NCBI GenBank assembly: GCA_051313645.2
Contig: JBNRSN020000003.1
Span: forward strand, 494,078,001 to 494,142,000
DNA length: 64,000 bases
From: Centroscyllium fabricii
Taxonomy: Eukaryota
Direction: 5' to 3'
Shown: positions 2,269 through 52,014 of the stretch, piece after piece
How positions within the stretch are numbered: the first letter of the stretch is position 1
How the letters are laid out: every line of letters begins with the position of its first letter
The notes under the pieces: generated by a model
The model's database searches: none
What the model was told of the DNA's origin: nothing
Seen by the model: the letters and a program-made list of their open reading frames with translations, nothing else
Program-made: the position numbers and the translations under genes

Positions 2269-3478
2269 CGAACTTTGGCTCAGCTGGACTATCGCACATC
2301 ATCACAGCTCTGCGCAGTTGCCGAATTTGTAAGAGAAACGGCCCTGTCACCGCTTTGAAATGTTAACTTAGATGTCCTCCCATTAATAATTGAGATAAAA
2401 TCGCCAACTTGTTGAATTGCCATGTGTGGGAGGAAGGGTGCCATGGGAGAGGAAGGGAATGTGATAGGTGCAAGCTCAAAATACTATCGTTACATTGGCT
2501 GATGGTTGCGATGTTGGTGTTTCCAGTTACAATAAATAAATGACTGACAGTGTTTTTTGAAAATGAAATGCATTCCTTCAAACCAAACCGCAGCTGACAG
2601 CTTGAAATGCAAAGACACCTCATCCAAATCTCAACTACAATCGAACGCCCTCTGTAATACACTTTCGAAAACTAACATAGGAAATATGATTCAAGCATCG
2701 AACCAAAACCATTGAGACGAAGCAGAAAAGGCTTGGTTATCTCAATCCACTTTCGATTATAAATCCGTTTATGTTATTTTCGTATTAGCGACACAAATCG
2801 GCTCCGCTTTCAAATCTACCTGAAAAAGCAAGAGTCGAATACAGCAATATTTACTTATAGTTTAGAGTGCTCGTTACAAATAAGAACTAACATTTCCAAC
2901 CTGCGCATAGTGTTGCAGCTCTTTAACTTTCCATCTTTTAATTAGAGTTTTAGAGATGAGCATTCTTCACATATACATCAATCGTGACATTGCTTCTAGA
3001 ATACAATAGCTGTAGAGTATCTGTCGTGGAAACACAGTATATCGAGTTTAAAATGTGATTCGTTTATTGGGCAGTGGTCAACAAATCCCAGGCCTCATCA
3101 ACTTGAAAAGGCATCCACACAAGTCGGTAAACGGCCACAAACTCATCAAAGTCTTACGCACAATGCCAAAAAGAACTTATTCCACTCAAAACCACCACCC
3201 GATTGAAAGCGCATCTCATAAGGTTTACTTGTGGTTTATCGTGAAGTTGGAATCTGAAGAATGTAATGCAACGAAACAAATTACGTCGAAATGAATTTAA
3301 AAGGGAAGTAGGCCAGTTTCACTGTAACTTTTTAAGTGTATGTTAGCTATTTAAAACGTTTCCGCTTCGGCCTGTTAGCCATGTCTGATGTAATGTGAAG
3401 GTGCCGGTGTTGGACTGGGGTGGACAAATGCAAGAAGTCACACAACACCAGATTATAGTCCAACAGTTTTATTTTAAA

Positions 3479-3516
3479 TCACAAGCTTTCGGAGCTTCTA
3501 CCCCTTCGTCAGGTGA
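3479..3516 (-). ncRNA. Minimal type I hammerhead ribozyme motif (mirror copy)
   Basis: Reverse complement reads TCAC-CTGACGA-A-GGGGT(AGAA)GCTCC-GAAA-GC-TT-GTGA. Confidence 0.68.
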
Positions 3517-3544
3517 AAGAGACTGACTTAAAAGTCAGTCTCTT

Positions 3545-3582
3545 TCACCTGACGAAGGGGCAGAAGCTCCGAAAGCTTGTGA
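3545..3582 (+). ncRNA. Minimal type I hammerhead ribozyme motif
   Basis: TCAC-CTGACGA-A-GGGGC(AGAA)GCTCC-GAAA-GC-TT-GTGA: core boxes, stem II, palindromic AAGCTT stem III and stem I TCAC/GTGA. Confidence 0.7.
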
Positions 3583-3769
3583 TTTAAAATAAAACTGTTG
3601 GACTACAATCTGGTGTTGCATGTCTGATGTAGGCAGGTATGCGTGCTTGCATCAGTATTTCTGGACGCCAAGAACACACTGAAAGTGAGACACGTCAGAG
3701 AAGAAGCTGTACCTGTATAACTACACTGCACACCGCTTTCTCCGAGGGCCTTGGTAGTAATTTGGGGGA

Positions 3770-3915
3770 AATAACAACATAAAATGCTGGAAACACAGCA
3801 GTTCAGGCAGCATCCGTGAAGAGAGAGATAAGAGTCAACGTTCACTGATGTTGCCTGAACCGTTGAGTTTTTCCAGCATTTGCAGTTGTTATTTCGGATT
3901 TCCAGCATCTGCAGT
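3770..3915. mobile_element. Fold-back Penelope-type insertion, family A
   Basis: Inverted arms; direct repeat ATTTGGGGGA at 3760-3769 and 3916-3925. Confidence 0.7.
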
Positions 3916-6900
3916 ATTTGGGGGAGCGTGTCCCACCCCCCTTTCCAAAATGGGTGTATTTTCTCCGAGTGCTGCGGATTATCCGAGTTTTCTGAGAATC
4001 AGTAGTGCGAACACGTGCTAGTAAGAAAACATTTAAACAACCCACTTGCTTCACAAGCGAATCCGCTAACTTCTTACGCCGACAGGAAACATTTCTACCT
4101 TGCTTTGTTTGATCATTAAAGTTGCATTTTCATCATTGTGCAAAAGGAAGATTAAACTGATCCTGATGGGGGCAGGGGATATATTGAAAACATACCTCTC
4201 ACCAACTGCAATTGGACGTCAAACATGCACGTTGCATCTGATCAAATTAGTACTAAACTGAAATAATACTAGGCTGTGAGGTTTAACAGGTTAACTCGTC
4301 GAAAACATCCTTTCGAAGATTCCCCATAGGATATGTTAGTACATTTGAGGCCTCTTTTGCTTTTACAACTGAAAGTGTGTGATATATTTCTCTTCCGCGG
4401 GAACAGATTAACCTTCCCGGAGAGAACCTGCATCTTTGAACCAATATAATCACTTCGTCATTGTAAGCCACAGGCTCACAACTGCATGGTTATTAGAACG
4501 ACCTCTGACTTGAGCGACTGGCTAGCGTTAAGATGCATAACTGGACAGAACGGATAAAATATGTGTTTGCTTAACCATCTTAACTCGGCGGTGAAGAATT
4601 GTAGCGACATAGCCTTTACGTAAAATGGAGCTAAAAGTCATGATTAATAACACACCACTTGGCGCCAACAACAGGCCGCGTTAAAGATACATGCCTTTAA
4701 TCCTCCATTGAGAGAGAACAGAGATCGCACTGGCTAAGCGACATGCTCCTTCGGCTGATGTCTCCAACAGTTTTGCAGTACTTTTCATCTTTTGCAGCAT
4801 TTCCTGTTAACTCGTAAACTTTTGATTGATAGGAAACTGATTAACCTGCCCGGGGTTACACATGTATACTTGCTGTACAAGTGATCTATAAAAACAAAAT
4901 AAGATTTTTTAGCAGGATGCTTGTTCGGCTCCATTAGTTGCTTTCTGTCAAAAGAACACGAATGCGTTTTTTTTTAAACCCAGCGATACATTTACAGAAA
5001 CTCAAATGTACTGGCTGTTCCTCAGAGCTTAAGGGACTAATAACCTGAGACCATTCCTAATTTGAAAAGTTAGATAATTTGTCGGAAGTAAATAAATTTC
5101 TAGACGTTATTCTGCAGTCGACAATATTAAACAGGGTTTCCTTTTGCATCGGGTGCACAGCCTTCTCCACACAAACCACATAACTGGATAGGCCCTCTGT
5201 TATGTAGAAATGCGGCTTATTTGTTTCTCTATTAAGTTATGTTAATTGTATACTAATATTTATTTTCTTTAAATTACCCCAGTCTGGCAATGGAATCTGC
5301 TGGAGACTGGTTACTATAAACTTAGCTCTGAAGTATGAGTGTTACGATTGAACAGTCGCCTCTAAATAAATGGCGTTGTATACTAAAATATTTTCCAATT
5401 GACTGACCTTAATATTGTACTGAGAATTGTGAGAAATTGTGTAGAAATTCACTTAAACGTTAGACATAAGTACACCATTTTGGAAGTTCTGGGACTAATT
5501 TGTTGCAATGATTATATTTTCCTTCTTCAGCTTGTTATTCACTGTGTGTCACAGTAATGACATATTTTATTTGGAGTGCTACATTATTTTATTTCTAAAT
5601 TTCATTTTATTGCTGCTCGCGAACAACTTTTGAAATGTTCACTTTAACGCGGATTAATTTAAGTTCGTCATGTGAATAACTTTGAGTTTCTTGCAATGAA
5701 TGGACTACAGCAACAGAAATGTTTTCTTTTAAATGTGCATCGCCGTTAATTACATAACCTTTGCTTATATTCCATTGCAAACTTTTCCATTTGACTTGAA
5801 TTAACCCCAGTTGCGGCGTCCCTATATGATATTCTACATTTAAACATTTAATAACACCGCAAGGTATGGGTTGCCGTACAGTTTATTGAAAACTCGGTAT
5901 AATAAGTAAATAACGGTTTGATATATGTTAACATATGACTTTCGAAAGACACAGCAAATCCATTAAACACAGTTACATTGAAATATAATCGAAATTGCTT
6001 TAGGATACCATTTCGCATCATCATTAGTAATACACCACGCAATGTACATTATAGACTTGGTATAACGGCATGGAATTAACCATTTATTACATAGATGTAT
6101 TCATCTCAATTTAATATAAACAGAGTTTCAGATTTACATTTGTATTTACACGTTAGGCCTTTAAAGTAATAAAGCATTTCGAAAGTAAATATAGTGCTCA
6201 GTTCGATATGTGTATGTGGAGATTCTGATTAAGGATGTCCATAGCAAGACTGGGTTAACACAAAACTTGTTGAATCTCTAACAGCCGCTATTATGTGACT
6301 CAAATCTGTTAACATTCTCCGATTACTAACTACAGGGAGTGGTAAAATAGAAATGGTTGCCTTTACAGCTTCCTGGTGAAAGACTCTTAAATAACACTTT
6401 ATTTAGAAATATATCAGCTTAAAAGTTAGAGAGGTTCTGTATGTAAAGTAAAATTAACCCAAATGAAATGCGACACCCGCTGAATTCAGTGTTATTTCTT
6501 ACTTGTGCTATTGTGAATTGGGATGATTGGATAACTAGAAAATTTACGAAACGCCCAAAATCCCGAAAGATAATCATTCCTTGTTCTGCTGCTATTTAAA
6601 TCATGTGAATAATTGCTTTTAGATCTTAACTCCACCTCACATTGACCTGTTATAACCCGTATTACAGTGACAAGTGTTCTGAGAGACAATGATGCAAAAA
6701 ATGCAAGTGGTAGTTTTGCATTATTCATCATGTGATGCTCTTAAAGAATACATCCACAGAAACATATAATAATGTAACAGTATCTTGAGTTTATTGCACT
6801 TCATGGAATCCATGATCAAGCTGCATGGGCCGGTATATATGAGCCGGAAGGCTTTTCTAATTCAACCTATTTTGTCCTTAGGCTTCGGGGTTTTATTTCT

Positions 6901-13129: not shown

Positions 13130-13279
13130 ATGGCGGAGACCGAGGAAGGCTTCGGGCTGCCAGGAACAACACACGGCGAGCCGGAGCCCAAGGAGCGCTC
13201 ATCTGAAAATAAGCAGGACAGCCAGCTCGGAGCCGTCAGCAAACCCCCCTCCCCACAACAAGCTACATATACTCAACAG
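13130..13279 (+). CDS. tbx5: T-box transcription factor TBX5, coding exon 1 (MAETEEGFGL...ATYTQQ)
   Basis: ATG at 13130. The 50 codons resemble the human TBX5 N-terminus (MADADEGFGL...AAFTQQ). Donor CAG|GTTGGT; upstream acceptor ctcttttgcaAG ends at 13113. Confidence 0.96.
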
Positions 13280-13599
13280 GTTGGTCTCAGGCACCCCTAC
13301 ACAGACAAACCCATGTGCAGTACAACATAAGTGCATGCTGTTGCAACACGAGTAACAACTTAGGTGTTCCATGTAAATGTCTATAAATGTATCTCTGACA
13401 CCTTTATTGGTGCTGGTGTACGCAGAGGCCTGATTGGTTAATCCCGTTACTTGTTCCACACTTTTGGACTGTTCGAATATCTCTGATCAGTAATCAGACC
13501 CAATTATGATTAGAAATCATTGCATTAGGGCGTATTTATTTTGCTGATACATATAAGTCCAAGAGTAGTGATATTAATTACAATCTTCACTTGTTATAG

Positions 13600-13695
<96 letters not shown>

Positions 13696-15157
13696 TAAGA
13701 GAGTATCAATGTACCGAACCGCAATGCTGCAATAATAACCGTTACTGTTCCCAATTACAACCCATTGTGATCGTCCTCACAACACGACCATCATCTAAAA
13801 TGGGCTTGCAAATATTCTTTTGATTAAACTTCGCAGTGATCGAACTCTCTTTGTCTATAAAAAATCTGTTCGGTCCCAAAGGGACATCCTTAAGTGTTTC
13901 TAAAGAGGGGAATATAATAGATAGATAGTAACTCCAATGCTCAACATTAAACAGGCTCAGATTAATCAATTTTTAATATGAAGTATTTAAAGTGACTGCA
14001 CAGAGCAGAGCCTGTCAGCCATGATGTAACAGCCAAGAAAAATACATTTAATAGAATGTAAATAAAAGCTTCCAATAATAGCCCCGAAAACGCATATTTT
14101 GACCTAACATTGGCTGTCCTTAGACTGTTTGTGGAAACTATAGCACAAAGGGCCATCATAAATTGCTCGAGCGTTTACAAAATGACACGGAAAAGTAGTT
14201 TAAGGAGCATGCAGGCTCTAATTAATAAAATATATGAATTACATGACATCGTCTGCTCCTCGCTATTATTTATTGTATTCAATTCATTTTAACGTTTAGA
14301 TGTGACACATTTTCCCATTTATTTCTTGAATATATTATTTTAAAATACATTTACACAGTAATATTCCAAATAAGTCACAAATTTGCAGGTTGAGACAGGA
14401 AGGCCGGGCATCCTAACTGGCGGCAATGTGAGCTACATTAGCAGGCGTGTGTAGAACAGTATTTAATAGTTTTTAAGAGTTAAAGTAATGCCTACTTTAC
14501 CACTCTGCCTTTACAAGATTTCCTTTTGCAAGCAGACAACATGTTTCCTCCTGGGCTTTCATTTTCATCCCACTTACGCTGAACGAGTGATAAATATTTA
14601 TAAAGATCTACATTTATTCAAGCTGTTCCTCGATAATTCGGCGAGACAACAAATACAGCTATCCCATTTAAAAGCTCTTTAGTTCGCTCCTAGTGCGACT
14701 TTTTTTGCTGACTAAAATCAGATTCAGATTATTTTTTTTCTCGAGTATTTTGTAAACACGGTTAGCATTTACAAAACAACAGCCACTTCCAGATGCAAAG
14801 AGACGAAACAACAGGCTTTGATTGCATGTTACAAATCAGGCCATGATCGAAGCCATGTCTGGATGTGTAACTTGGTGCATTAACGCTGCCTGTTTAACCG
14901 CGGCTGGTACAATCCGTGTTTACTGTGTGCATGAGTTACAGATCCTGTTATGTCTTCTTCAGATTGAACAATAGCTTTTCTATTCATTTGTCTTCCTAAT
15001 GTAACCTGGTCTACTCAAAATAAAATTATTTGTCAGCAAATATTAAGCATTGAGACAGACTTTTTTTGGCACGTACATCTTTGCAAGTGCTCGATATTAA
15101 TATTTTCCAGAATCAGCATTTTGTACCCTTTATTATTCATGTACAAGAAAGGTTTAA

Positions 15158-15391
<234 letters not shown>

Positions 15392-15856
15392 TAACAGAGT
15401 TTATTAATTGCTGAGCTGTGAATGATTAATCTTTTAAAAGCGTTACTCGGTGTGGTATGGAGCGGATAGCACCACCCTCCTGTACACGGTGTGCGTTGAT
15501 AAATGAGTGGCCTCTGCTTAACGGCACGTGTTGATTGTACTCTTTAATACTGACCATATTGCATAAAAGTTTGTTAATTCATGCAAAGAGATATGAGAGC
15601 AGAGTAGTTACAATACGCCACGGGTCTTTTTCGCAGTTAATTGAAGCAGTTAGTCCTAAGTTTCTGGAACATCTAACTTCCTAGCGCCCATTGTGCAATA
15701 TAGATTCAGAGTGTGGGTTCAACGTGTATAAAATATGCATCGAGAATGGCACCTGTTTTATTAAAGGCAATGCATTTTTGTAACATCGTGTGTGCGCCAA
15801 GTCTAAATCCGTTGCCTGGACTGATGGCAAACTGTTGGGAGTTTAGCTTCGAGTAA

Positions 15857-16090
<234 letters not shown>

Positions 16091-17954
16091 TGAACTCCAA
16101 TTGTCTGAAAAATTTACAACATTTTAATCGCGCAGTCTTGGAGAATTAATGCCAAGTGTTATGGAAACGGATGGCCCTAAAACCAAATACAGTCAAACTG
16201 GCTGATACTTAAAATAAAACAGAACATTTGCGTTTTGCAGTGAATGAGTTAACTGCCGCGGGTCTACTCAGGGTTAATCAGAAAGTTGCGAGGTGAGCTG
16301 GTCGTCACGTTGGGCACCAGTCGAACATTTAGTGCAACGTGATTATTTGCTGTAGGTTTGCACATGTTGCTTCTTGGAAGTGGACATTGACAAGGTTGCT
16401 ATTTCAACTGCGGTGCAGGGTCAATGAGTGTTTTTAGCGACGCATCAGGAATGCAATGGTTTGCAAACACGAGCTGAGAATTGAACCCTTCTCTCCACCT
16501 GGAATCGATGGCCCCGACTGCAGATTGCCGGATTGTGATGCACTGCATTCTGGGAGGTGGGGAGGTCTGCCATGACATAAACAATAAGGGCATTATGGGA
16601 GAAGGCACACGTGTTCATTTCACTGCCTTTGCCGACCCAGGCTGTGTAATGTACGATAGAAGTATCGCTGCAGTATAAAGGTCCAATCATTTTTTTTCCA
16701 ATTTTAAGCTCAGCGGCCCTATTGAAATGCTCTGATAGCATTGTGATTTTGTTGTTGTTGTTGTAAATTGCGCTCAATTCCTCCATTTAATGTAAAAATA
16801 CTTTAAAATAACACACCGTGGCCAGCATTGAGAGCAGGATCTGTATTATCTGCGAGGTTTATCTCGAGATAGGGTTAGCAAATAGAAGCAGCGCATGAGT
16901 AGAATCATCATCGACTTCCACAGGGTTTTTTTTGCTAAGGTTTGGGATGGTTTGTGTCGCAGAATAGGGGGCTGTGTTTGTCAGACATTACGCCCTTCGT
17001 TGGGTAACGGTAGCCTTGGAAACTGCCTTGCGATGGATGGAAGCCCCGCGAAGGGCAGCCTTCCCTACTGTGAAAAGGCGGCGAATGTAAAAATCTCTCT
17101 AAACAAACGAATGGAGAGGCAACAATGAGAAATTCATTTAACAAATTGCTAGATGAAACCAGTACTGGTAGCCTCTCAATTAAGCGGGATGTAATGAAAT
17201 TAAAAACCATTAGATCGTTCACCACTGATGTCTAGGGCTTACGGGACTGTCAAAGCAATTTACCTAAGCCTGGGGGATGAGAGGGACTCCGAGTAGAGAT
17301 GACTTGCAGGGTCTGCGATGGCGGGACAAGCAGCGTCTTTCTGTCGCCAGGTTCCCTGCCAACCCTGCCCCCCGCTCCTCACCAACAATCTTTACGATCT
17401 TGGAATAATTGGAGAAAAAAAGACTTCAGCGAGCCACGTCGATATCACCAGACACTTGCAACTCAAATGTTGGTTTTTTTCTTAAAAAATAAAATAAAAT
17501 ACAATGAAACATGTCCCCATGAGGGATTAGCACTGCTAATGGCGGGAGATTAGGAAGGTGAACGCGTTGCCAAAAGAAATCTCACCCCCACACGGCGGAA
17601 ATCCGCACGGATCCTCCACAATCTGTTCGTGTTGACTGCAATTTGTTACAATTGGGATTAGGAAGGCTGCGGAGGCGGGGAGGGAGACAACGAGGAGGTG
17701 TGTGTGTTAAACACCTTTCTTGGCTTTGAAATATAGGCCCAGATGAGTCATCTTAAAAATACATCCATTTCCACTCTTCTGCACCGGTTAATGTCCCCTT
17801 TTCACGTTCCGTGTTGCTGATGAGACCCCAAACACTCGCGTCCCCTTGAAGCACATTCCCCGCGGTCAAGTTGCCCCCCCCCCCCAAATGCGAACGTGGA
17901 TCTGAAACAGTGTTCATGGAAGGGGGGGAAAAATAACTGCATTTTTTTTTGTAG

Positions 17955-18125
<171 letters not shown>

Positions 18126-18310
18126 TGAACCTTGCAGCAACCAATTCACTCACTTACACCCCTGTACTTTCAAATGTTTGTTCCAACGCACTGTTTCAGA
18201 ATAGATGCAACATCCAGGCTGATGTCTTCAGTGATAACAGGGCCATCGGGGACCTGGGCAACAAACCGGCAGGTTGCATGTTATAAGCAACCTACAAGTT
18301 TCTCTTGTTA

Positions 18311-18503
18311 ATAACAACAGAACCTGCTGGAAAAACTCAGGAGGCCAGGCAACATCCGTGGAGAGAAATATAGAGTCGACGTTTCGGAAACCCGAAACGT
18401 CGACTCTATATTTCTCTCCCCGGATGTTGCCTGGCCTGCTGAGTTTTTCCAGCAGGTTCTGTTGTTATTTCGGATTTCCAGCATCTGCAGTATTTTGCTA
18501 TCG
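18311..18503. mobile_element. Fold-back Penelope-type insertion, family A (tbx5 intron)
   Basis: Arms symmetric about ...GTCGACGTTTCGG AAA CCCGAAACGTCGAC...; degenerate 18-bp TSD at 18293-18310 and 18504-18521. Confidence 0.75.
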
Positions 18504-20745
18504 TACAGGCTTCCCTTGTTACTGGGTCACATTGTAAACAGATGAGTCCAGCTTTAACTGTTAATTTTATGAACGATCACCCGCCTATTCGAAGATTTAA
18601 AGATCGCGACTGTGTTGGTGTATGGAACAGCATATTAACAGTCCGCCAGCACCTCAAACAATAAAATTCAGACTAATAATTAACTCGCTCCAGAACCATA
18701 AACTGTCTTTTCTCTTTGCAGAAGCCAATGGACATGCAGCATATTTTGAATATTTTCTGCTTTTATTTCAGACTTCCAGCATTTGCGGTTAATTTTCATT
18801 GTATATATATTTATTTCCCGTCTCTTATGTTTTCTGGGGTGGGAGCGCTTTAAGGGGATACTTTAATAATTGGCCACATATGGAAAGTCTCGTCTAATTT
18901 TTAATTTCCCTCTCTATTGAAATGACGCCAGTTGTAGAATTAGTTGGAGATTACAGTTTCATAGATCAATAATCACTTCTGGTCTATGGCGTTTAAGGAT
19001 CCCAGGGACCCGGACTGTTTATGTTCGAGCTCCGTTCAATAGCCGTCAGCCACCCGTTTGAACAACTGACGGTTAAAGACCTGGAGCATTTACTCCGGTA
19101 AAAGGTCGGCGAGAGGATCGAAGTCGGGATCCGTTTAACTTTACAACCAAAAAAATCAAAGCAGAACCCTAACCTGCAGTTCACGAAACGCGAAACGGAA
19201 CTAACATTTATCATTTTTAATGAACCAACGTTTGTGTGATCCGCAAGTCCCGCCAAAGTTGTGTAACATCAGACTTGGTTGTTTTGGACTGAAGCGATCA
19301 ATATTTGTTCCCTGTAAGTGTTCCAAGGAGCCATACATTTTATTTTGAGTGAAGATTTTTGAAAATATTTAACTTTATAAAGTGGTACCAAGAAGTGGTC
19401 TTTCGGGGTTTGAAGACTTTAATTGCTTTTTAGGTGTATACGTTTCATTGCTGGTTAACGGCTGCTTCTTAAAAGCATACAGATTTCCAATTATCTGAAA
19501 ACGGGGCATAAACGCCAGCATGTTGAAAAAATGATAGTATAATAGTGGAGGGGGGGGGGGGGGTGATAATTAATATAGACTTCATTAAAGAAGGCACTCA
19601 ACTGCAGAGGTATAATGATTTAGCCGTCTTTTAACTCTTTAGGACCCACCATTTGAATGCACAGTTCCCCCAGGAAATCCGTCTACCTGAAGCCACCTAA
19701 CGTCTAAAACTTGGACTTTAGTGTGACATCTTTCTCCCAAATATTCAGCACGTAGCAGGACCATTACACCCCACACACACTAGAATTGTTTCTCAAATGA
19801 TCACACTACATTTGAAAGCTTTGTGCTTATTACATTTGTAATGTGTTAACCATCTTATTAAACATGAGCGTGTAAAGATGCATAACGTCAAGTTTTCGTT
19901 TCATTTGTGTTTCTTTAATACTTTGAAAAGTGACTTGTATTTTAATACAAAATTAACAAAATGATCAGAGCGACAGACTGCATGTTTGTAATGCGCGTTT
20001 AAAATGATATTTAAATCTTCAGCGAAAATAACACGAAAGACAATCCATTATAACATTTCTATGTAATGACGTGTTATTAGATACATGGCGTGTCGTTTTC
20101 TCATATACAATTTTCTGAAATTGCTTGAGGCAATCCAAACTGATTATTCACTATCAACCAATCAGATTGGAATGTAAAGTATTTTATAAAATGGAAGTTG
20201 TCTTTTTGCCTCACGTTGCATAATATAATATCCGCACCAATTTCCTTCCATTGACCAGAGTATGTTGATACCCTGATATGGCGTGTCCCCGAGGTCTATC
20301 TCCCTGCATTTCTGTACATGCACCGAGGCGATTATTTCACGTCCACACTACTCAATTTAAGCAGAAAGTCCTGAGATTTTGAGATAAACTGAGGAGGAAT
20401 ATTGCCAGCGTTGCACATAATGAACCCGTTCATGGGATCCGCCCGGGAAATGTCAGTTAACGTTCGATGCAGCTGCCCAACCGAGTTTCAAACGCTCAAC
20501 TTTCCAGAAACCTCAATACAAATTGCAGATGGCGTCAGCGTCATATAAGGGACGTTTTTGTTGGAAGTGAACATGCCTTTCTTCATAAGACGTGTCGCAG
20601 ATTTGGTCAATACATTGCAAGTGGTTCATTCGCGTGAAATACTGGCTTTACATTTACCTAGCAGTTTGTCAAATAATGATTATTCGCGAGGATAGCGTCT
20701 TTAGTTTGGGTCTTAATCATTTGTCCCAGATATGCTAATTATAAA

Positions 20746-20910
20746 TAACAACAGAAAATGCTTGAAAACCTCAGCAGATCAGGCAACATCCGTGGAGAGA
20801 AATATAGAGTCGACGTTTGGGGTTCGAACCCATTGTCAGGACAATAATTCTCCCCACGGATGTTGCCTGACCCGCTGAGTTTTTCCAGCATCTGCAGTAT
20901 TTTTGCTATC
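20746..20910. mobile_element. Fold-back Penelope-type insertion, family A (tbx5 intron)
   Basis: TSD ATG(C/A)TAATTATAAA at 20732-20745 and 20911-20924; degenerate hammerhead on the minus strand. Confidence 0.75.
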
Positions 20911-21416
20911 ATGATAATTATAAAGACTGTTAAACGCCAGGCTCTATACACCTTAAGTTTCAATCTGAAATGAGTAAATCATTCGGAAGCTGACCAGGGC
21001 TACAGTAACACGAGCAATACTAGACTCAGACCGGTATGTGGAGTCTGCTACCATCAGCTGGCGGACCTGAGCTATACTGCCAACCAAACCCATCCTCCAG
21101 CCAATTCAGCCAAAGGAGATTCGAGCACGCGTGCTTGGGGTGGGTGCGCAAGGAATGTACCAGTAAATGATTGCTTAGGTCCCCAGGAAGCCGCTTGGAC
21201 AGTTTTATAACCGGCCTTACAATTAGACTGCAACATTGTCGAACTCCAAAGTTTGAGACTCTCAACTGGAGGTGTGCTTTCTGTGCCCACAGGAGTCAGA
21301 GCCGATTCCCAAGTTATACTGCCATTTTCTCATCAATGCACACCCCAAAACACTTCCCATGCACACACAATACTTATGAGGCTGATATTTCCTCCCCCGT
21401 CTTGCATATTTCGGTA

Positions 21417-21640
21417 GAACAACAGAAAATGCTGGAACAACTCAGCATGCCTGGCAACATCCGTGGAGAGGTCGACGTTTCGGGTTAGGACCCTTTGTCA
21501 AGCCTGAAGCATCCTTGCTTTAGGGTCCTAACCGGAAACGTCGACTCTATTTCTCTCCACCGATGCTGCCTGGCCTGCTGAGTTTTTCCAGCGTTTTCTG
21601 TTGTTACTTCGGATTTCCAGCATCCGCAGTATTTTGCTAT
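21417..21640. mobile_element. Fold-back Penelope-type insertion, family A (tbx5 intron)
   Basis: Inverted arms with GTCGACGTTTCGGGTTAGGACCCT / AGGGTCCTAACCGGAAACGTCGAC. Confidence 0.72.
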
Positions 21641-22024
21641 TGCATACCTAGGCGACCGACTGAAGTTATACTGCTGACAGCATTGCTACGCGTTGCACTA
21701 AAGTTGCAGCTCTATGCAATCCTGCTTCAGGCTGGCGTTTTTTAAAAAATATTGGGAACGTATGGGTGAAACACACACTTTCTCCGAAAACGAACAACAT
21801 TGCAAAGTAAAGCGAGTGAAGTTTATTAAGTGTGCAAAAAGAGAATGGATCAGGTGGTCAATTTTAAAATGCATTCCGAAATTCGCAGGCTAGTTTGTAC
21901 TGCGGTTAGCTTCATAGGGGGAGCAGGGGGATGTTCAAGGGGTGGGGGGGGGGGGGGGGCGTTTTGCAATATTTTATTTTAATGTGATATAGAAGATTTA
22001 ACGCTGTTTTAATTTCTCATTTAG

Positions 22025-22192
<168 letters not shown>

Positions 22193-22729
22193 TGAATTGG
22201 CATCCATCTAGCTGTTTCGCTTTCAGTCATATCCCATCACGTTTAGTAAAATGCTCCATATGTTTGTGATTTTTAGTTCTGTGGGGAATTGTTGTTTTGA
22301 ACACACACACAACTGCTGGCTTAGTTACGGTCGGGACAAAGTTCATTCTGATTTTGCGACGTGTAAATGTAATTAGATTGCCAAAATCCTCGTAAAGAAT
22401 GAAAAAGGACGTGCATTTATATAGCGCCTTTCACGACCCAAGCACGTCCCGAATCGCCTTCCAGCCAATGACGCACTTTTGAAGTTTTAATCTGGAAATT
22501 CAAATATAGATTAAGACACGTGTTTCTCTTTAAGCTGCAAGCCCGACTTTAACTGTTTTCTACTGTGTGCGTAATTAACAGTTCAGACTGAATTTTGGAA
22601 AGTCAAATCCCCTTTCCAGTTAAATTGTACCAATATCGTATTTTTATATAATATATAATTTCGTACCTTTATACACGGACTCTGTGGATTATGAGCCTGA
22701 CTGTTACATGAAAGTTCATCGACCTGAAG

Positions 22730-22820
22730 TTTCTCTCGCCACAGATGCTGCCTGACCTGCTGAGTATCTTCAGCAATTTCTGAGATTTCCAGCATCTGCA
22801 GTATTATCTTTTTGTATTTA
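22730..22820 (+). mobile_element. Family A single-arm fragment
   Basis: CACAGATGCTGCCTGACCTGCTGAGT...TTTCCAGCATCTGCAGTA. Confidence 0.6.
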
Positions 22821-23430
22821 TGCTACATGAAACTGCTATTATAGACATCGCAAATGCGGCCAATCTTGGCCTTCAGTCAGCATTATGTGACCCACAATTT
22901 CTAAGCACACTTCCGATCCAAGTATCCTTTTATTCATAGATACAAATCGGACGTCCGATATCAGTGTATGCGAGTCCGTGTCCAAATATAGCCCTGATGC
23001 AAACACTCGTTCGCCAGCTGTCATTCGTTGTATTGGCCAAAAACAACAAGACTTTTCCCGAGGCAGTTGGAATCAGACAGCAGGGAAGGAGGCCATTCAG
23101 CCCATCGTGCATGTGGCGTCTCTTTGAAAGAGTTCGCCCCACTCCCCCACACTTTCCCCGTCGCCCCTGCAAATTAGAATTGGGAGAGGAACAGACACAA
23201 GAACAGGCAGAACCACTTAGACTTGTTAAAATGGTTTAATTCTGACGTTCAGAGAATGTGAACATCCTTTAACATTACAGATGCAATTTAAATCTTTCGA
23301 CCACATAGATTTATTACTGAATATAACAACGCGCTGGGTCTGTACCCTCCGGAAGCACCGGTGGAAGTGTTGCGTTTTTTTTTGCCCTTTTTGAATTTCA
23401 AGGAATTTACCTTTTGTAATATGGTTACAG

Positions 23431-23654
23431 TAAAGAATACCCTGTGGTTCCCAGGAGCACGGTCAGACAACGTGTGGGGTCTACTGCGAATCAGTTCAGT
23501 GGAGAGGTGCGAGTGTTGCCGGTGTCAAACAACCTGAGCTCCCAGTATCAGTGCGAGAATGGGGTTTCCAGTTCGACTCAAGAGCTGCTGCCTCCCAACC
23601 CATACTCACTCTCTCAGGAGCAGAGTCCGCTCTACCACTGTACCAAGAGGAAAG
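23431..23654 (+). CDS. tbx5: TBX5 coding exon 7 ([15 protein letters not shown]...LYHCTKRK)
   Basis: Acceptor ggttacAG, donor AAG|GTGAGA; 224 nt; overlaps ORF 23444..23716. Confidence 0.96.
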
Positions 23655-24260
23655 GTGAGAAATCCCTCAGCCACTGCTTCAACGCTTTCTGGGGCTACCA
23701 CGCATTTTCAATGTGAATCGCCGGTCAGTGTCATGTCAGTGTCAGCTACACATTTTATCTGGCGAAAAAGATACATTTTTAGTAGATATTAGAATCAGAA
23801 ATGAGCTATTTTCCGGTTCTAGTCACCATGGCAAGCGCAGCAGCCCGCAGTATCCTATTATAAAGGAAGCAACAGATTAAAAAAAAAGAATTGACAAGTG
23901 GTCATCTGCCTCAAGAGTTCCCACCGAGAGATCTAAACTGTCTCTTCTGTGGGTGGCTTCTCTAAATAACCGGTTATCTGCTCCTCTTGAGTGTCAAAAA
24001 ATAAACAACTCTCGGGACTACAGTGGCAAGATGGAATGCTGTGATGTGAAAGGAGCACGTGACCTTCCAATCCGTGCTCCACCTCACACAGGCTGGGCTT
24101 GTCAACATTTTTTCCTCTTAAGTGCATTTTAGTAATACTTCATTGCATGGACGCTGAAGGCAATATATATCTTCTGTGGTGATGTATCTTATGAAAATAG
24201 GTCTTTAGCAAAATGTTGCTGGAGAGCTTGAGTAACAGAACCCCTGACTGAGAAAGATGC

Positions 24261-24444
24261 CATGATGTGGAGGTGGACAAATGCAAGAAGTCACACAACA
24301 CCAGATTATAGTCCAACAGTTTTATTTTAAATCACAAGCTTTCGGAGCTTCTCTTTCACCTGACGAAGGAGCAGCGCTCCGAAAGCTTGTGATTTAAAAT
24401 AAAACTGTTGGACTATAACCTGGTGTTGTGTGACTTCTTGCATA
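24261..24444. mobile_element. Fold-back Penelope-type insertion, family B, in the last tbx5 intron
   Basis: Arms nearly identical to 3443-3618; 10-bp TSD AGAAAGATGC at 24251-24260 and 24445-24454. Confidence 0.85.
24356..24392 (+). ncRNA. Minimal type I hammerhead ribozyme motif, sense to tbx5
   Basis: TCAC-CTGACGA-A-GGAGC(AGC)GCTCC-GAAA-GC-TT-GTGA, with a perfect 5-bp stem II. Confidence 0.72.
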
Positions 24445-24679
24445 AGAAAGATGCAAAGGAGTTATGTTTATCAGGAATATCCGTGTTGCCTGTATAATAA
24501 AGTTTGAATGCTTAGTGAAACAAAAACACCTTAAAGTGCAAAAGCATTTTTTTGGGAGAGGGAGGGGAGTTTGTTATTCAGTGCTGATGAAATAATGAAA
24601 TACCTGTGTGTGTGTGTTGGTGGTGGGGGAGGGGGGACGCGTGTGGAGGCAATGGGCTCAGACCTGCACCATGAAATAA

Positions 24680-25052
24680 ACACTTGCCTTTATATTGCAC
24701 CTTCCACACCCACAGCAAGGTCCCACAGCAAGGTCCCACAAACAGCAATGTGCAAGTGTCCCAAAAACAGCAATGTGCTAGTGACCAGATAATCTAATTT
24801 TTAGTGATATTGGTTGAGGGATAAATATTGGGTGGGAAGCCCAGGAGAACTAGCCTGCTCTTCTTCAAGTAGTGACATTGGATCTTTAACATCCATCTGA
24901 GGGGCAGATGGGCATCGGTTTAACGTCTCATCCAAAAGATGCCACCTCTGACAGTGCAGCACTCCTTCAATACTGCACTAGATTGTCAGCCTAGACTTTG
25001 TGCTCAGGTCTCTGGTGTGGAACTTGAATCCACAACCTTCTGACTCAGAGGC
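24680..25052 (-). mobile_element. SacSINE1/DeuSINE-like SINE (tbx5 intron)
   Basis: tRNA-like head (reverse complement of CTCTGAGTCAGAAGGTTGTGGATTCAAGT) and Deu-like core (CTGTCAGAGGTGGCATCTTTTGGATGAGACGTTAAACCG). Confidence 0.75.
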
Positions 25053-25258
25053 AACCATAGAGAGATGGGTCACTAAGACCCATGTGGCCTTGAGGTATGC
25101 ACCTATAACATTACTTGTAAACTGTTTATAAGGACATTTTCAGTACATTTGTTGACTAAAAAAGCAATGTTTCTAATAACGAAATAATATCTCTTGCTGT
25201 TTCACGCATTGTTCATTAATTTAAATTTTATTCTGCTCTGATTTATTTATGTAAGCAG

Positions 25259-25845
25259 TAGAAGAAGACTGCAACTCGACAGAACATCCATACAAGAAGT
25301 CATATATAGAAAGCTCCCCTCCGGAAGATGACCCATTCTACAGGTCCTCAAGTTACTCCCAGCAACAAAGTCTTACTCCCACTTATAGGACTGACTCAGC
25401 ACAACGACAAGCATGCATGTATGCTGGCTCAACACCAGGCACGGACCCCAGCTCCAGCCTCGATGACATTAATTGTAACACTTGGGCCACCGTTCCCTCA
25501 TACAGCAGCTGCACAGTGACTGCAATGCAACCCATGGACAGACTGCCCTACCAACACTTCTCAGCACATTTCACATCAGGCCCGTTAATGCCCCGCATCT
25601 CTGGAGTTGCCAACCACACGTCTCCACAGATAGGAGACACCCACAACATGTTTCAGCATCAGCCCTCCGTTTCTCACCAGCCCATAGTCCGGCCGGGCGC
25701 TCCTCAAGCTGGGATCCAGTCTGCAAACAATCTTCAACCTGCTGACTACTTGTATCCACATGGCATGTCAAGAACCCTCTCACCACATCAATACCACTCA
25801 GTACATGGAGTGGGCAGAGTGCCCGAATGGACTGAAAACAGCTAA
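25259..25845 (+). CDS. tbx5: TBX5 last coding exon ((V)[13 protein letters not shown]...[12 protein letters not shown])
   Basis: In frame with ORF 25417..25845, with TBX5-type C-terminus ([33 protein letters not shown]). The acceptor is ambiguous (exon start 25259 or 25262). The joined CDS is 1569 nt with the CAG acceptor. Confidence 0.95.
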
Positions 25846-32710: not shown

Positions 32711-35628
32711 GCCTCTGCTTCTTTTACCAATCACCTTAAATCTGTGTCCTCTGGTTACCGACCCTTCTGCCACTGGAACAGTTTCTCCTTATTTACTCTA
32801 TCAAAGTCCTTCAAGGTTTTGAGTACCTATATTAAATCACCCCTTAACCTTTGCTGCTCTAAGGAGAACAACCCCAGTTTCTCTAACCTCTCCCTATAAC
32901 TGAAGTATTTCATTCCTGGTTCCATTCTAGGAAATCTCCTCTATACCCTCTCTAAGGCTTTGATATTCTTCCTAAAGTATGGTGCCTAGAATTGGCCACA
33001 GTACTCCAGCTGGGACCTAACCCATGTTTTATAGGTTTAGCTGGGTCTAACTAGAGATTTATAAAGGTTTAGCATAACTTCCTTGCTTTTGTACTCTATG
33101 CCCCTATTTATAAAGGCAAGGACCCCGTATGCCTTTTTCATAGCTTCTCAACTTTCCTGCTACCTTCAAAGACTTGTATAAGTGCCCCCCAGGTCTCTGT
33201 GCCCTGCAGCCCCTTTAAAATCATACCATTTACCTCTCCTCATTCTTCCCATCAAAATGAACCACTTCACACATACCTGTGTTAAATTTCATCTGCTGTG
33301 TGTCTGCCCATTTCACCAGTCTATCTATGTCCTCCTGAAGTCTGTCCTATCCTCCTCACTGTTTACTACATTTCAGAGTTTTGTGTCATCTGTAAACTTT
33401 GAAATTATGCCCTGCATACCCAAGTTCAGGGCATTAATATATATCAAAACGAGCAGTGGTCCCAGCATTGACCCTGGAAGGTAGTGCTGCTCATTTTCCT
33501 CCAGTCTGAAAAACAACAGTTCACCACTACTCTCTGCTTTCTGCCCCTGAGCCAATGTTGTATCCATGCTACCACTGACCCTTTAATTTCATGGGCTTCT
33601 TTGCTAAAAAGTCTGATATAGTATTTTATCAAACAACTTTTGAAAGTCTATATATACATCAACTGCACTACCCTCATCATCCCTGTCCGTTACTTCATCA
33701 AGGAACTCAATCAAGTTCGTCTAATATAATTTGTCTTTGATAAATCCATGCTGGCTTTCATTTATTAACCCATACTTTTCCAAGTGTCTGTTCATTTTGT
33801 CCTGGATTAACATCCCCAAAAGTTTCCTCACCACTGATGTTAGGCTGATTGGCCTGTAGTTGCCGGGTTTATTCCTTTCCCCTTTTTTGAGCAGGGGTGT
33901 ACCATTTGCAATCCTTGAGTCCTCTGGCACCATTCCCAGATCTGAGGTTAGAGCTGCTGCAATTTTCACCCTTACTTCCCTCAGCAACTTAGGATGCATC
34001 CCATCCAGACTGGGTGACTTTTCTACTTTGAGGACTGCCAACCTTTTAAATACCTCCTCTTTATCGCTTTTTATCCTATCCAATTACTCTACTACCTCCT
34101 CCTTTACTGTGGCATTGGCAGCATCCTCTTCTTTTGTGAAGACAGATGCAAAGTACCTCAGCAATGCCCTCTGCCTCCATCAGAAGATTTCTTTTTTGAT
34201 CCCTAATCAGGCCCACCCTTCCTTTGACTATCCTTTTACTATTTACATCTTTATAAAGACTTTGGAGTTCCCCTTTATGTTACCCACTAATCTATTATCA
34301 TACACTCTCTTTGCCCTTCTTATTTCCTTTTCCAGTTCTCCCCTGAACTTTTTATTTTGAGCTTGGTTCTCTACTGAATTATGAAGCCAGCATTTATTTT
34401 AAGCCTCCTCCTTCCGCTTCATTTTAACCTCTTTATCTTCATGCATCCAGGGAGCTCTCACTTTGGATGACCTTCCTTTAGCCTTCGTGGGAACATGTCC
34501 ACTCTGTACCTGAATCATCTCTTCTTTGAAGGCTTCCCATTGCTTACTTACTGTTTCACTTGCCAATCTTTGATTCCAATCCACCTTGGCCAGATCCCTT
34601 TTCAACTCACTGAAATGAGTCCTCCTCCAGTTGAATATTTTCCCATTTATATTTCCTTGTCCTTTTCCTACTTCTCTTAAACTAATGATATTCTGATCAC
34701 TGTTTCCCAAATGCTCGTCCACTGAAACATGTTACACTTGCCGCAATTCATTCTCAGAACTAGATCCAGCACTGCTTCCTTCCTCATTGGGAAGGAAACA
34801 TACTGACCAGGAAAGTTCTCTTGTACACATTTCAGGAAACCCACCCCTCCCTTTGCCCTTAACACTCTTAGTTGTCCAGTCTAAATTAGAATAATTGAAT
34901 TCCCCCATTATCACTGCTCTAATGTTTTTGCATCTTTTTCAATGGGCCTGCCAATTTTCCCCTCTATCTTCTTCCCACTGTTTGGTGGCCTATAGTACAC
35001 ATCCAGCAGTAAATAGCTCCTGTGTTGTTCCTTAATTCTAACCAAATAGATTCTGTCCTTGAACCCTCAAGTACATCATCGCTTTCTAGTGCTGTAACAA
35101 TATCATTAATCAATATTTCCACCCCCTCCTTTTTCTTTTTCCCTATCTTTCCTAAGTACATTGTAGTCAGGAATATTAAGTGCCCATTCCACCCCTTGTT
35201 TGAGCCAGATCTCCATTATTGCACTATATCATAATCCCATGTGGCTACTTGTGCCTGCAGCTCACCAACCTGATTTCCCACACTCCATGCATTTACACCA
35301 TGCTATCTGAACCCATCTTAGTCTACCTCACATATCCCCCCATCTGATCCCTCCTATTTCTGAACTACTCTTTATTCTAATGCTGTTTATCTCACCCAGT
35401 TCTCTGTGCACCTTGTATCTCCTCTTTAATGCCTCATCCTGGTGCTCCTCACCCTGCCAAATTAGTTTAAACCCTCCCCCACAGAACTAGTTAACCTTTC
35501 TGTGAGGACATTGGTTCCAGCCCTGTTGAGGTGCAACCCATCCATTTTGTACAGGTTCCTCCTGCCCCAGAACAGGTCCCAATGCCCCAGGAGTCTGAAG
35601 CCTTCCTGCCTGCACTATTTCTCCAGCC

Positions 35629-36100
35629 TTGAAGCTTTGACCATGCTCAATCAGCTCCGATGGACGGGTCACATTGTCCGCATGCCCGATACGAGACTCC
35701 CAAAACAAGTGCTCTACTCGGAGCTCTGGCACGGCAAGAGAGCCCCAGGTGGGCAGAGGAAATGCTTCAAGGACACCCTCAAAGCCTCCTTGAAAAATTG
35801 TAACATCCCCATTGACACCTGGGAATTGCTGGCCCAAAGCCGCACAAAATGGAGGAGAAGCATCCGGGAAGGCGCCGAACACATTGAGTCTCTTCGCCAG
35901 GAGCAAGTGAAAGCCAAGCGCAGGCAGCGCAAGGGGTGCACATCAACCCAAGCAACTTACCCACCTGTCCCTTCAACCACCGTCTGCCCCACCTGTGACA
36001 GAGACTGTAGGTGCCGCATTGGACTCATCAGTCACCTGAGAACTCATTGTTAGTGTGGAAGCAAGTCATCCTCGGTTCCGAAGGACTGCCTAAGAAGAAG
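35629..36100 (+). mobile_element. 5'-truncated RTE-clade LINE
   Basis: LRWTGHIVRMPDTRLPKQVLYSEL..GGQRKCFKDTLK..CPTC..LISHLRTH; (AAG)3 tail; 12-bp TSD ATTTCTCCAGCC. Confidence 0.9.
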
Positions 36101-38890: not shown

Positions 38891-40082
38891 GTGTCAGCCT
38901 TGGCTCAGTTGCTGCTTTCATGCCTCTGAGTCAGAAGATTATGGGTTCAAGTCCCACTGGCACACATAATCTAGCTGGTACTCCTGTGCAGTACTGAGGA
39001 GTGCTACACTGTCAGAGGTGCTGTCTTTCGAATGAGACATTGGCCCAGAAATTCGGGTTGGAGGCTTCCTGCGAGTGCAAGCCTCCAACCCACACTTACC
39101 TACCGCGCCGGCCATTGAGCAGTGCACTCGTATGGACTTCCTGAAGTGCTGGCGCGCCACGCTCCCGGATCCCAGCAGCGAAGATAGTGCGAGGCTTTGC
39201 AGGATCACGTGGTCCGCGGAGAGCCAATCGGAGCACAGAATGCTCCATTCATAAGTTTGACAGGAAGACCTGTCAAACTTATGAATGCTACAACCCCAAA
39301 ACCTCAGTAAATCTTAAATAAATTTTTAAAAATCACATTTTTAAAAATAACTATCAATTACATAAATTAGCTATTTTAAACAAAAATAAAAATTTTTGAA
39401 AAAAGTAATTAAAGTATTTAACGGGGCTAAAAATAAACTTACCTTTCTTTAAGGTATTTAAAAATGAAAAGCCTGTGGAATTTTTTTTTAATTGAATTAA
39501 TTCACCACTTACCTGCTGAAAGGGGTCTTTGCGCTTGAAAATAGAAGACGTATCTCTTTCCAATACTTACCCGGAAAAAAAGCTGTGAAAGAAATCGCAA
39601 GTGCATTGCGCACCCGCTGCCGCTGCCGCGCACATATTCTGATACCTGACACCTGACCCCTTCTTTCAGGGGATCGGAAGTGCCGGTTTCGCACGCATGC
39701 ACCGTGCATGCAAAAAACCGGCACTTCTGATGGGCCGACGCGTGAGTACCCAGCGCGTACTCACGCGTTGGGGTCCTAATTTCCACCTCATTATGCCGAG
39801 GCCCTCTGAAGTGGACATAAAAGATCCCGTGGCGCTATTGGAAGAGCAAAAGGTTTCTCTTGGTGTCCTGCCCAAACATTTACCTCTCAACCAATTCCTA
39901 AAATAGATGATTTTGTCATTTAGTTAATTGCTGTTTTGTGGAATCTTGCAGGATGCAAATTGGCTGCCGCGTTTCCTACATTACAACAGTGACTGCATTT
40001 TAAAAGTACTTTATTGGCTGTAATGCACTTTGGAATGTCCTGAGGTGATGAAAGGTGCGATGTAAATGACAATCTTTCTTTC
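38891..40082 (+). mobile_element. Full-length SacSINE1/DeuSINE-like SINE split by a MITE
   Basis: Head TTGGCTCAGTTG..GGGTTCAAGTCCC; the core resumes after 39792; tail ends CTTTCTTTC. Confidence 0.8.
39042..39789. mobile_element. Harbinger-like MITE with GC-rich ends and AT-rich centre
   Basis: Ends GGCCCAGAAATT / AATTTCCACCTC, 3-bp TSD ATT; inverted homolog at 60930-61682. Confidence 0.8.
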
Positions 40083-46203: not shown

Positions 46204-47039
46204 AGGGGGGGATTTTCATGTCCCCGTGAGGCGGGGTTTTCGGCGGCCCGGCCGGCAAAATAGCGCAACCGGAAGGTCCCGCCCCTCCCCGCCGTATCCC
46301 CACCACTTTCTCATTTTCGCCCGCCCAGATTTCCCGCCCCGAAACCTTCCCACCGCCGACCGGCGGAGATGGGTTGTCACCTCGTTAAGGGCCCTTAATT
46401 GGCATCGTTAATGCCATTTTAAGGACCCTCAGCCATTCTGCCCTGTTTTCCACCCTAACCCCTCCACCTTAAACCCCACTGGGTGAAAACCAGCGGGAGC
46501 ACAGCGCTGGTTATTACTTTTGGACTATAACCTGGTGTTGTGTGACTTCTTGAATTTATGACTTTCTCCTTTAAGGTGTGAAGGACATGCTGCCAAATGC
46601 TTGGCATGCCTCCAGCACCTTAGAGGAGTAAGTAACTCCATTCTGGCATAAGCAGCAGCTGTTAGCAGAAACTGAAAAATCTCAGTTCTGCACAGCTCCT
46701 GAGCCGCTGTGAGCTGTGAGGGATTCTGAGCCCGCCCACGCATCTGTCAGTCACCAGCACATGGCCTTTCCCATTGGCTCCACTCCACTGTGATGTCACA
46801 GTGGAGTGTTTCCATGGGAACTGACAACAACCAGTGCTGGAACTGTCAATCAAAGTGCTCGCAGCTCCGCTGCAGCCTGACCCGATTGACTTAATTACCT
46901 CCCGCTGCTGCCGACGGTGATTTAACAACCTAATTAAACTAAAATTGCATGGCCTTCCCAGCTGTTTGGGCAGGCAGGGCCGGAAGCCGTCCAGACCAAT
47001 CCCCGCCAGGTTCCCGCCCTTCCGGATAAATCCCCCCCT
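46204..47039. mobile_element. Harbinger-like MITE inserted in a family A Penelope-type arm (46160-47105)
   Basis: TIR AGGGGGGGATTT / AAATCCCCCCCT, TSD CTG; the host sequence TTAACTCTG|TTT rejoins across it. Confidence 0.8.
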
Positions 47040-47711
47040 CTGTTTGTCTCTTCACAGATGCTGCCCGACTTGCTGAGTATTTCCAGCATTTTCTGGTTTT
47101 ATTTCTTTTAAAGCAATGTTACACTGATGTGTATACTTCGCCATGTATACAGACCATTTTACAATGTTCAACACAAGCTCGAGGAACAGCAACTCATCTT
47201 TCGATGAGGCACTTTACAAACTCTCAGATGCTACCTGACCTGCTGAGTGTTTCCAGCATTTTCTGTTTTTATTTCAGTTTTCCTGCATCCTTGGTGTGTT
47301 GCTTTTGTATATTGACCAGTGTTGTCTCATAGAAAGCGCTGACTAGGCACAGGTGTGGCTACAGTGATACCATTTTGGTCGCATGCACTAATTTTAGTTT
47401 CAAACTCCTTACACAAGCTCACACAATACAGGTAAATATACTTCACATATGTAGAGTTACATAATAGACATCAGTAACCATGGAAGTAAAGCATTCACGG
47501 CAATCAATAACACTTGCACGCTCTGCTTTTCTCTCACCCTTTTAGGAACATTGGAACAGGAGGAGGCCATTCAGCCCCTCAAGCTTGTTCTGCAATTCAA
47601 TGAGATCATGACTGATCTGTGACCTAACGCCATATTAGCGGGGATTGGTCTGGGCGGCTTGGGAAGGCCTATATTGGTCTGGGCAGCTGGGAAGGCCTAT
47701 ATCGCTTAATA

Positions 47712-51054: not shown

Positions 51055-51532
51055 GGGGGGAAAAATTCGGTGGCGCCCATTTTTGGGCGCTAACTTCGGC
51101 GGTGCGCTACTTTTAGCACCTGGCTAACGCTCGCGCCGTTCCTCGGGAAATTCGGTTGTAGCGCCCAAAGCAGGAGCTCGGGTGCTACTGCAGGCGCCCG
51201 ACCTCGTTCTTCAGGCGCTACAACTGAATTTCCGGCTCTGTGGGTTGATGCGCCACGCTCTACAGAGTGCTGCACCGCAGTACTGCAGGCCTTCCACCCC
51301 TGATTAAAGGGGCGTGGCCTCGCGCGGTTCCGGCCAGAGCCCCATTGGGCCACCGTGGGACGCTGCGCACTCCGATGACGTCATCCCCGGCGGCGTGGGG
51401 CCATGGGGCGCTACCGGCTTCCGCACACGCCAGCGCCCCACTGAATATTGTGGGAGGCACCAGGCCAGGCTTGCGCCCCATTAGCAGCCCTCTTAGGGTG
51501 CTAATGGCTGGCACAAGCCATCGAATTTCTCC
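51055..51532. mobile_element. GC-rich Harbinger-like MITE, internally deleted, inverted relative to 40854-41611
   Basis: Ends GGGGGGAAAAATTCG / CGAATTTCTCC; shared internal motifs. Confidence 0.75.
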
Positions 51533-52014
51533 ATAGGTTTTGTTTAGATATGGCTGAAATTGAGCATGGATGCAGAGAATGCAGATCACATGAAAATCCA
51601 CGCATCTATATTATATCATTTGAAATTAGAGGGCACTAAATTAAGCTGGTGAGGGATTTCCTGGCTCTTATTATGGAGTTGCTGTAATGGATTTTCAACT
51701 TTTTTTTATTCCATATTTCTATTTTCAGCTTTACAAATGTAGATTTTGTGAGTTGCTCATATATGTAAAAAAACAATTCCAAAATTACATAATTTTAACG
51801 AACTCCAAAGCTGTGATGTACAATGGTATCATGCGAGCTAGTGTAAATATTATGCCCGTTGAATGCTTAAGTAGATCTATCATATTACTGTAAACCCAGA
51901 GCAGCAGTAAATTACTGTCAATACTCAAACATACGGCATTTATCTTAACTGTGTACACCTAGGTGCAAAATAAAGTGTAAAAACCAGTTATACGCCCAAC
52001 AGGAGTGGATTATA

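Follow-up and report, generated by a model that had tools for sequence, protein, structure and literature searches.

A palindrome with a hammerhead motif on each strand in Centroscyllium fabricii as the probable doubled end of a Neptune-like Penelope-like element

The stretch of 64,000 nucleotides analysed here, referred to throughout as the window, comes from the 7.2 Gb genome of Centroscyllium fabricii and contains a 226-bp palindromic unit with a hammerhead ribozyme core on each strand. The question raised by this locus is what kind of mobile unit left it. A sequence-only reading had attributed the unit to Penelope-like elements (PLEs) and offered two alternatives, an extreme product of truncation plus inversion or a self-standing, retrozyme-like unit consisting of a ribozyme only. 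Based on the present analysis, it is highly probable that the unit consists of two head-to-head copies of the end of a Neptune-like PLE, both heavily 5'-truncated; it was likely built at insertion and has likely been dead since.

The architecture that had been read from the letters was reproduced in all its parts (Table 1). The inverted repeat of 176 bp (3443-3618) is 96.6% identical over 176 nt, with two mismatched pairs (3455/3606 and 3500/3561), and its arms meet at a 2-nt loop, AA; the 13-bp TSD is present on both sides, and each strand carries one hammerhead core. The unit is asymmetric, as 3393-3442 has no mirror partner. The plus-strand hammerhead consists of stem I TCAC/GTGA, CTGACGA, an extra A, stem II GGGGC/GCTCC, GAAA and the palindromic AAGCTT. 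The long hairpin expected of a transcript of either strand was also recovered (-165.9 kcal/mol, z -25; 0 of 200 shuffles). Contigs of two public runs, possibly of the source sample, cover 3200-3418 with 0 differences, running from the left flank into the element; the right junction is not clearly spanned by them.

Table 1. Parts of the palindromic unit and related pieces of the same PLE family in the window
Feature	Position	Strand	Remark
Left TSD copy, CATGTCTGATGTA	3380..3392		Last 2 nt also fit the element's continuation into the ORF start
Unpaired PLE tail	3393..3442	-	50 nt; stops just before the parent's ORF start codon
Tail-bearing pLTR arm	3443..3529	-	Sense on the minus strand
Minimal type I hammerhead	3479..3516	-	Predicted cut between 3483 and 3482
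Inversion centre	3530..3531		Falls on TTTAAGTC of the parent, where junctions recur
Tail-less pLTR arm	3532..3618	+	Plus-strand sense; the usual second end lies ~12 nt further on
Minimal type I hammerhead	3545..3582	+	Predicted cut after 3578
Right TSD copy	3619..3631		First 3 nt (CAT) fit the usual second end site TTGCAT
Second palindromic stump	24261..24443		Different centre; in the last tbx5 intron
Fragment of the same pLTR end	46516..46557	+	42 nt

The parent called for by a PLE origin, carrying a Penelope RT and a GIY-YIG nuclease, was found in the same genome as a pLTR-ORF-pLTR copy (L206), which supports that origin. The direct repeats of this copy, 562 bp long, are 97.5% identical to each other, and both pLTRs were also found in two further copies (L208 and L209). 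The 138-nt minus-strand arm of the window matches the two pLTRs of L206 at 95.7% and 94.3%; the hammerhead sits inside the pLTR of the parent, and in some copies the pLTR leads directly into the ORF start codon. The parent ORF encodes an RT, a Cys linker and a GIY-YIG-type nuclease. The RT was recognized in the frames of L036 (PF00078, E 4.6e-10, above the Pfam cut-off), and the DKG motif IKPADKGG is present in copies L064, L067 and L068. Walking upstream from close copies led to L030, an insertion of 1,253 bp that is flanked by a TSD of its own and codes for the Cys linker and a GIY-YIG-like motif. The nuclease motif, VVYLIRCRKGCPGAWYIG, is followed by conserved H residues, and two cysteines lie between GIY and YIG (CCHH). 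Scanned directly, alone or within the query ORF, the nuclease region gave no Pfam match; it aligns at 47% overall with a turtle homologue (P0023), in which residues 484-533, within the stretch aligned with the parent nuclease, score above the GIY-YIG cut-off (PF01541). The proteins closest to the parent ORF are uncharacterised shark proteins (80-90%). No fully intact ORF was present among the five long copies read, and that of L206 is frameshifted. The linker between RT and nuclease, PCHSNLCKTC, has the form CX4CX2C. It was reported that a CX2-5CxxC linker at this place defines the Neptune/Nematis clades (PMC8557442), and the parent is grouped with these clades because its linker fits the definition given in the accessible text of that paper; the parent is an EN+ PLE, Neptune-like as judged by its linker sequence.

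The ends of the family's insertions were compared in a set of 77 loci, from which 13 without an exact 13-mer pair were dropped, leaving 64. A TSD of at least 9 nt was found near both ends in 54 of the 64 palindromic loci. These TSDs are 9-17 nt long (median 12), comprise 54 different sequences and are 70% AT, and in many of them a few bases are shared with the end of the element, as is expected of priming by microhomology. The tailed arm ends at reference positions 122-132, which is the ORF start codon, and the tail-less arm at 80-93, near TTGCAT, in 53 of the 54 loci; the two ends lie ~38 nt apart, so that the tail measures ~38 nt in most copies as against 50 nt in the window. The window palindrome is the outlier, with its second end at reference position 75. 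At its right end CTGGTGTTG is followed by CAT, and the long tail is likely the result of pairing at CAT and then slipping by 12 nt from one TTG repeat to another, which would fit exactly. Inverted truncated copy, one-sided tail and variable TSD are the traits of EN+ PLE insertions, and all of them are seen in this family. A MITE or DNA transposon was rejected as a candidate: the tail makes the two ends differ, equal TIRs are absent, and the fixed short TSD that had been named as a sign of such behaviour was not seen at lengths of 9-17 bp.

The number and variety of copies bear on the choice between the two alternatives. A 13-mer of the pLTR end has 183,866 exact matches in the genome (control 78) and a 13-mer of the hammerhead 62,764 (control 1,199), and head-to-head pairs within 30 nt number 2,210 genome-wide (control 0). 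Among the first 100 listed matches by position, 15 head-to-head pairs (spacing 21-2,709 nt), 3 same-strand pairs and no tail-to-tail pairs were counted. The unpaired arms examined (n = 65) reach from 0 to >700 nt upstream, an approximate range since some run through the inversion. Palindrome lengths are continuous, the shortest being tens of bases and the longest 2.9 kb long; 1,135 loci are palindromes free of the hammerhead, and in a raw count 394 palindromes turn further upstream. As for whether copies share one inversion point, the centres are mostly unique, 44 being distinct among 50 listed palindromic loci. This variation of centres and lengths supports extreme truncation plus inversion.

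The second alternative holds that the palindromes are a self-propagating, non-autonomous family, retrozyme-like or MITE-like, whose units are transcribed, cleaved by the hammerhead and re-inserted whole. It would account for thousands of units of 215-260 bp, for a centre like that of the window palindrome at 77 loci, and for the enrichment of junctions just 5' of the hammerhead. Yet among the 16 of these 77 same-centre loci that were compared, subfamily states and outer ends vary, and the two arms of a locus vary together; the centre is therefore a recurrent site and not the mark of a clade, and each palindrome was likely made at insertion. The tandem head-to-tail unit is also absent, variable TSDs and unequal ends give no DNA-transposon signature, the hammerhead is predicted to be buried in the hairpin, and palindromes without a hammerhead are made as well. 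Together with the existence of a parent and the continuum of lengths, these findings largely refute the self-propagating family, and we consider it very improbable.

The enrichment itself was estimated per arm: junctions just 5' of the hammerhead amount to 7.0% (2 x 2,210 of 62,764) and those 50 nt further 3' to 1.2% (2 x 1,135 of 183,866), an excess of about six times between two samples of unlike age and CpG content. This excess is not accounted for by simple random truncation, and the 5' end of the transcript may lie where the centres are in excess, just 5' of the hammerhead.

Several groups of loci were observed in which copies are clustered or compound. Eleven near-identical loci with common flanks at C745 57.7-62.1 Mb and on C737 (L009-L012 and L017-L023) look like one PLE insertion carried within a large repeated segment. 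Eleven clustered matches with an identical palindromic centre at C711 279.33-279.58 Mb are likely a tandem segmental array. The complex insertions L055 (1401-1557), L027, L015 and L054, with at least three pLTR ends or an internal ORF-derived palindrome, point to repeated template switches or insertion into the element's own pLTRs.

The status of the ribozyme was assessed separately. The bare core pattern has 6 matches in the window against 4.3 expected, which is not above chance. A hammerhead descriptor with stems I and II plus the palindromic helix III returned 4 matches in 264 kb, all of this PLE family, and 0 in each of 30 shuffles. The corresponding check with the Rfam hammerhead models gave no match; the Rfam scan returned miRNA-precursor matches only, far below gathering scores, which reflect the hairpin alone. 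The core boxes CUGANGA, GAAA and UH, stems I and II, and the palindromic 15.2-16.2 are all present, which supports a minimal type I hammerhead of the dimer type, and the sequence agrees with the predicted cut after GCUU. At hammerhead residue 17, U is slower than C.

The claim that stem II pairing is kept in three variants stood in part. The variants exist; they count as weak evidence because the changes are one-sided and because GGGGT differs from its own sister arm. The apparent recurrence of T in GGGGT is a selection effect, since the search query itself carried T. Covariation across copies proved real against a second PLE-like family, and only there. This family has 12,965 genome matches to a related core (control 7). 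In 36 sequences of both families, 97% of stem cells are paired (slid controls 20-44%), and both-sided changes occur at 8 of 11 pairs, that is 4/4 in stem I, 3/5 in stem II and the GC/CG palindrome; because the second-family core was fixed by the search pattern and two families make essentially one contrast, these figures support the fold and are not a statistic on many events. The second family, an older PLE-like end that likewise forms head-to-head palindromes, was also observed in the window itself, at 950-1181, 3768-3919, 18310-18505, 20738-20891, 21418-21646, 22729-22817, 47038-47289, 52009-52126 and 63507-63558. The stems of its hammerhead are compensatory and its palindrome is AACGTT or ACGT; its window copies mostly lack the first core box.

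Folding predictions place the ribozyme in an unfavourable setting. Taken alone, the 38-nt cores do form stems I and II, but their folds are no more stable than those of shuffled sequences (z -0.6 to -1.2). In the palindromic transcript of either strand the predicted probability of stems I and II is ~0, and in a single 138-nt arm the predicted stem probabilities are low, 0.013 and 0.001. Folding of two copies together did not favour the double-hammerhead dimer, a different structure being best (-24.9 vs -19.9 kcal/mol). Since the antisense arm comes first on either strand, the ribozyme would be locked into duplex, and a transcript of either strand is predicted to hide its hammerhead in the hairpin.

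How the mirror arm is made was approached through comparison of the two arms of each insertion. Over 59 sites, two arms of the same insertion show 1.63 differences and arms of separate insertions 5.14 (62 loci; 0 of 10,000 permutations). Arms of the same insertion also share rare private variants, which indicates one template or one source locus. One template is not an exceptionless rule, since arms with different stem II subfamily states occur at 3 of the 62 loci and also in L120. Arm lengths were sized against the copy library; L169, W24 and L185 were left unresolved by the script, and L185 was read by eye. In L033, L051, L166, L171, L176 and L185 the tail-less arm far exceeds the tailed one, by up to 1.1 kb, and these insertions keep TSDs of 9-14 bp. 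Among 11 longer pairs sampled by position, the tail-less arm was longer in 3, the tailed arm in 3, the two were about even in 4, and 1 was unresolved. At 61 loci an arm consisting of the tail only is joined to a whole hammerhead arm; in the 20 of them examined, none had the tail on the hammerhead arm, and the TSD was kept in 13.

Since either arm can be the longer, tail-only arms occur and the ends are fixed, the two arms are read as two priming events, one per nick. Twin priming on two nicks is accordingly the route to which we lean, with modest confidence. The endonuclease would nick both target strands ~12 bp apart. The element RNA would offer two internal sites; each free 3' end would anneal to one of them over 1-5 nt and start a cDNA of its own. 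Both cDNAs would stop early, and their ends would be joined at a microhomology or mini-palindrome and then filled in. The tail would then equal the distance between the two priming sites, and the hammerhead would be carried along passively in the palindrome. Against this, a later deletion across the palindrome centre could mimic asymmetric arms, and later gene conversion could mimic arm identity.

The PLE origin is common to the rival explanation, which competes with the twin-priming step only. In this fold-back model, one target-primed cDNA folds at a mini-palindrome and copies itself, asymmetric copies being later central deletions. Self-priming was indeed proposed for such junctions in the accessible text of PMC3846280, private variants are usually common to both arms, and the centres often lie on the mini-palindromes TTAA, AAGCTT and ACATATGT. 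Such hot spots fit both models, however, because two identical cDNA ends can pair only through palindromes. A self-copy cannot exceed its template, yet tail-less arms exceed the tailed ones with their TSDs intact; tail-only arms speak against folding back too, and the fixed second end and the arms of different subfamilies are left unexplained by it. Fold-back is thus considered rather unlikely, and the two fixed end sites, the shared private variants and the occurrence of either arm as the longer one favour twin priming over it. We further propose, as a suggestion with even prospects, that the inverted repeats and the tail of PLEs are one phenomenon, which would follow from a dimeric RT-nuclease, two nicks, two RNA sites ~38 nt apart and usually one template. 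No twin-priming proposal for PLEs was found among the papers listed in searches of the accessible literature.

The genomic setting of the palindrome was considered as well. Eight coding exons of tbx5 lie at 13130-25842 (+), with 80-100% identity to shark TBX5. Co-option by the host, with the palindrome as a source of hairpin RNA or a regulatory element near tbx5, is suggested by its location ~9.7 kb ahead of the first coding exon of tbx5 and by the sister palindrome within the last tbx5 intron, which has one whole hammerhead (24356-24392 +), a tail deletion and a degenerate 14-bp TSD. However, copies of this kind recur at intervals of a few tens of kb and nothing about the locus points to a function; we regard co-option as exceedingly improbable. 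Public RNA runs gave contigs only, with shares of 0.04-0.20, which speak neither for nor against expression or cleavage. Elsewhere in the window, the frames at 35466-36053, 48999-49475 and 57301-58257 are presumably LINE reverse-transcriptase fragments, and small imperfect palindromes lie inside other repeats at 39246-39287 and 51146-51233.

The window palindrome is therefore likely an ordinary dead by-product of insertion, one of thousands of stumps of a known retrotransposon class. PLEs were already known from the literature to have inverted truncated copies, a tail and hammerhead pairs on opposite strands, and the value added here concerns mechanism, that is, how the mirror arms and the tail of PLEs arise, on which the copy statistics bear. 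In shark-like genomes, palindromes with a ribozyme on each strand would be PLE debris and not viroid-like or retrozyme units. If twin priming is true, the thousands of events in this genome, including tail-only and mixed-subfamily arms, would decide between it and the published self-priming.

Comparison with known systems places these features in context. In LINE-1 twin priming, two target nicks each prime cDNA and the 5' inversion is joined at microhomology; the L1 arms represent non-overlapping parts of the RNA, primed at the poly(A) and at a random site. Two-nick priming as proposed here would be common to LINE-1 and the window PLE family; the latter differs in its two fixed sites 38 nt apart and its overlapping, mirror-identical arms.

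The insertion units of EN+ PLEs were described, in the accessible text of two papers, as an inverted 5'-truncated copy plus a tail of 30-40 bp (PMC8557442, PMC3846280). The window unit resembles them in the pLTR, the adjacent inverted truncated copy, the head-to-head junction, the one-sided tail and a TSD of ~8-13 bp. It differs in that both arms are only ~90-140 nt long, because of which no ORF is left in it, and in its 50-nt tail with the likely 12-nt slip at the second end.

Minimal metazoan PLE hammerheads were reported to have low activity and to need dimers, and opposite-strand pairs of them 100-700 bp apart in PLEs are mentioned in the same accessible text (PMC4209133). They and the window hammerheads are alike in the extra base between 9 and 10.1, the G10.1-C11.1 pair, the short helix I, the palindromic 15.2-16.2 and the location in the pLTR. 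The predicted window hammerhead differs from those described there in its 5-bp stem II and in having U as residue 17. Non-LTR retrozymes are described in the available portions of two reports as head-to-tail tandems with same-strand ribozymes from which circular RNA is released (PMC7229834; bioRxiv 10.64898/2026.07.22.740005). The window unit is likewise small, non-coding, PLE-derived and equipped with a type I hammerhead, but it is inverted, with one ribozyme per strand. A non-LTR retrozyme was rejected as a candidate, since at least two same-strand, head-to-tail hammerhead units are needed for it.

The closest mechanistic parallel is with PAc, a Poseidon element of the anole. According to the accessible part of the report, two internal start sites of reverse transcription delimit its tail, both target strands are cut and extended in vitro, its protein is predicted to be a dimer, and its hammerhead cleavage requires the protein and is dispensable for insertion (PMC11167929). 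PAc and the window family are alike in the two start sites bounding the tail, the hammerhead near the ORF start and the AT-rich targets. PAc differs in belonging to the Poseidon clade, in being without the Cys linker, and in its start sites, which lie 111-118 nt into the ORF, whereas those proposed for the window family lie at and before the start codon. The two-priming reading, by analogy, agrees with the behaviour of PAc; in the accessible text of PMC11167929 the two start sites are not linked to two inverted arms, and with the copy statistics presented here, each of the start sites seen in vitro would find its counterpart in one end of an insertion.
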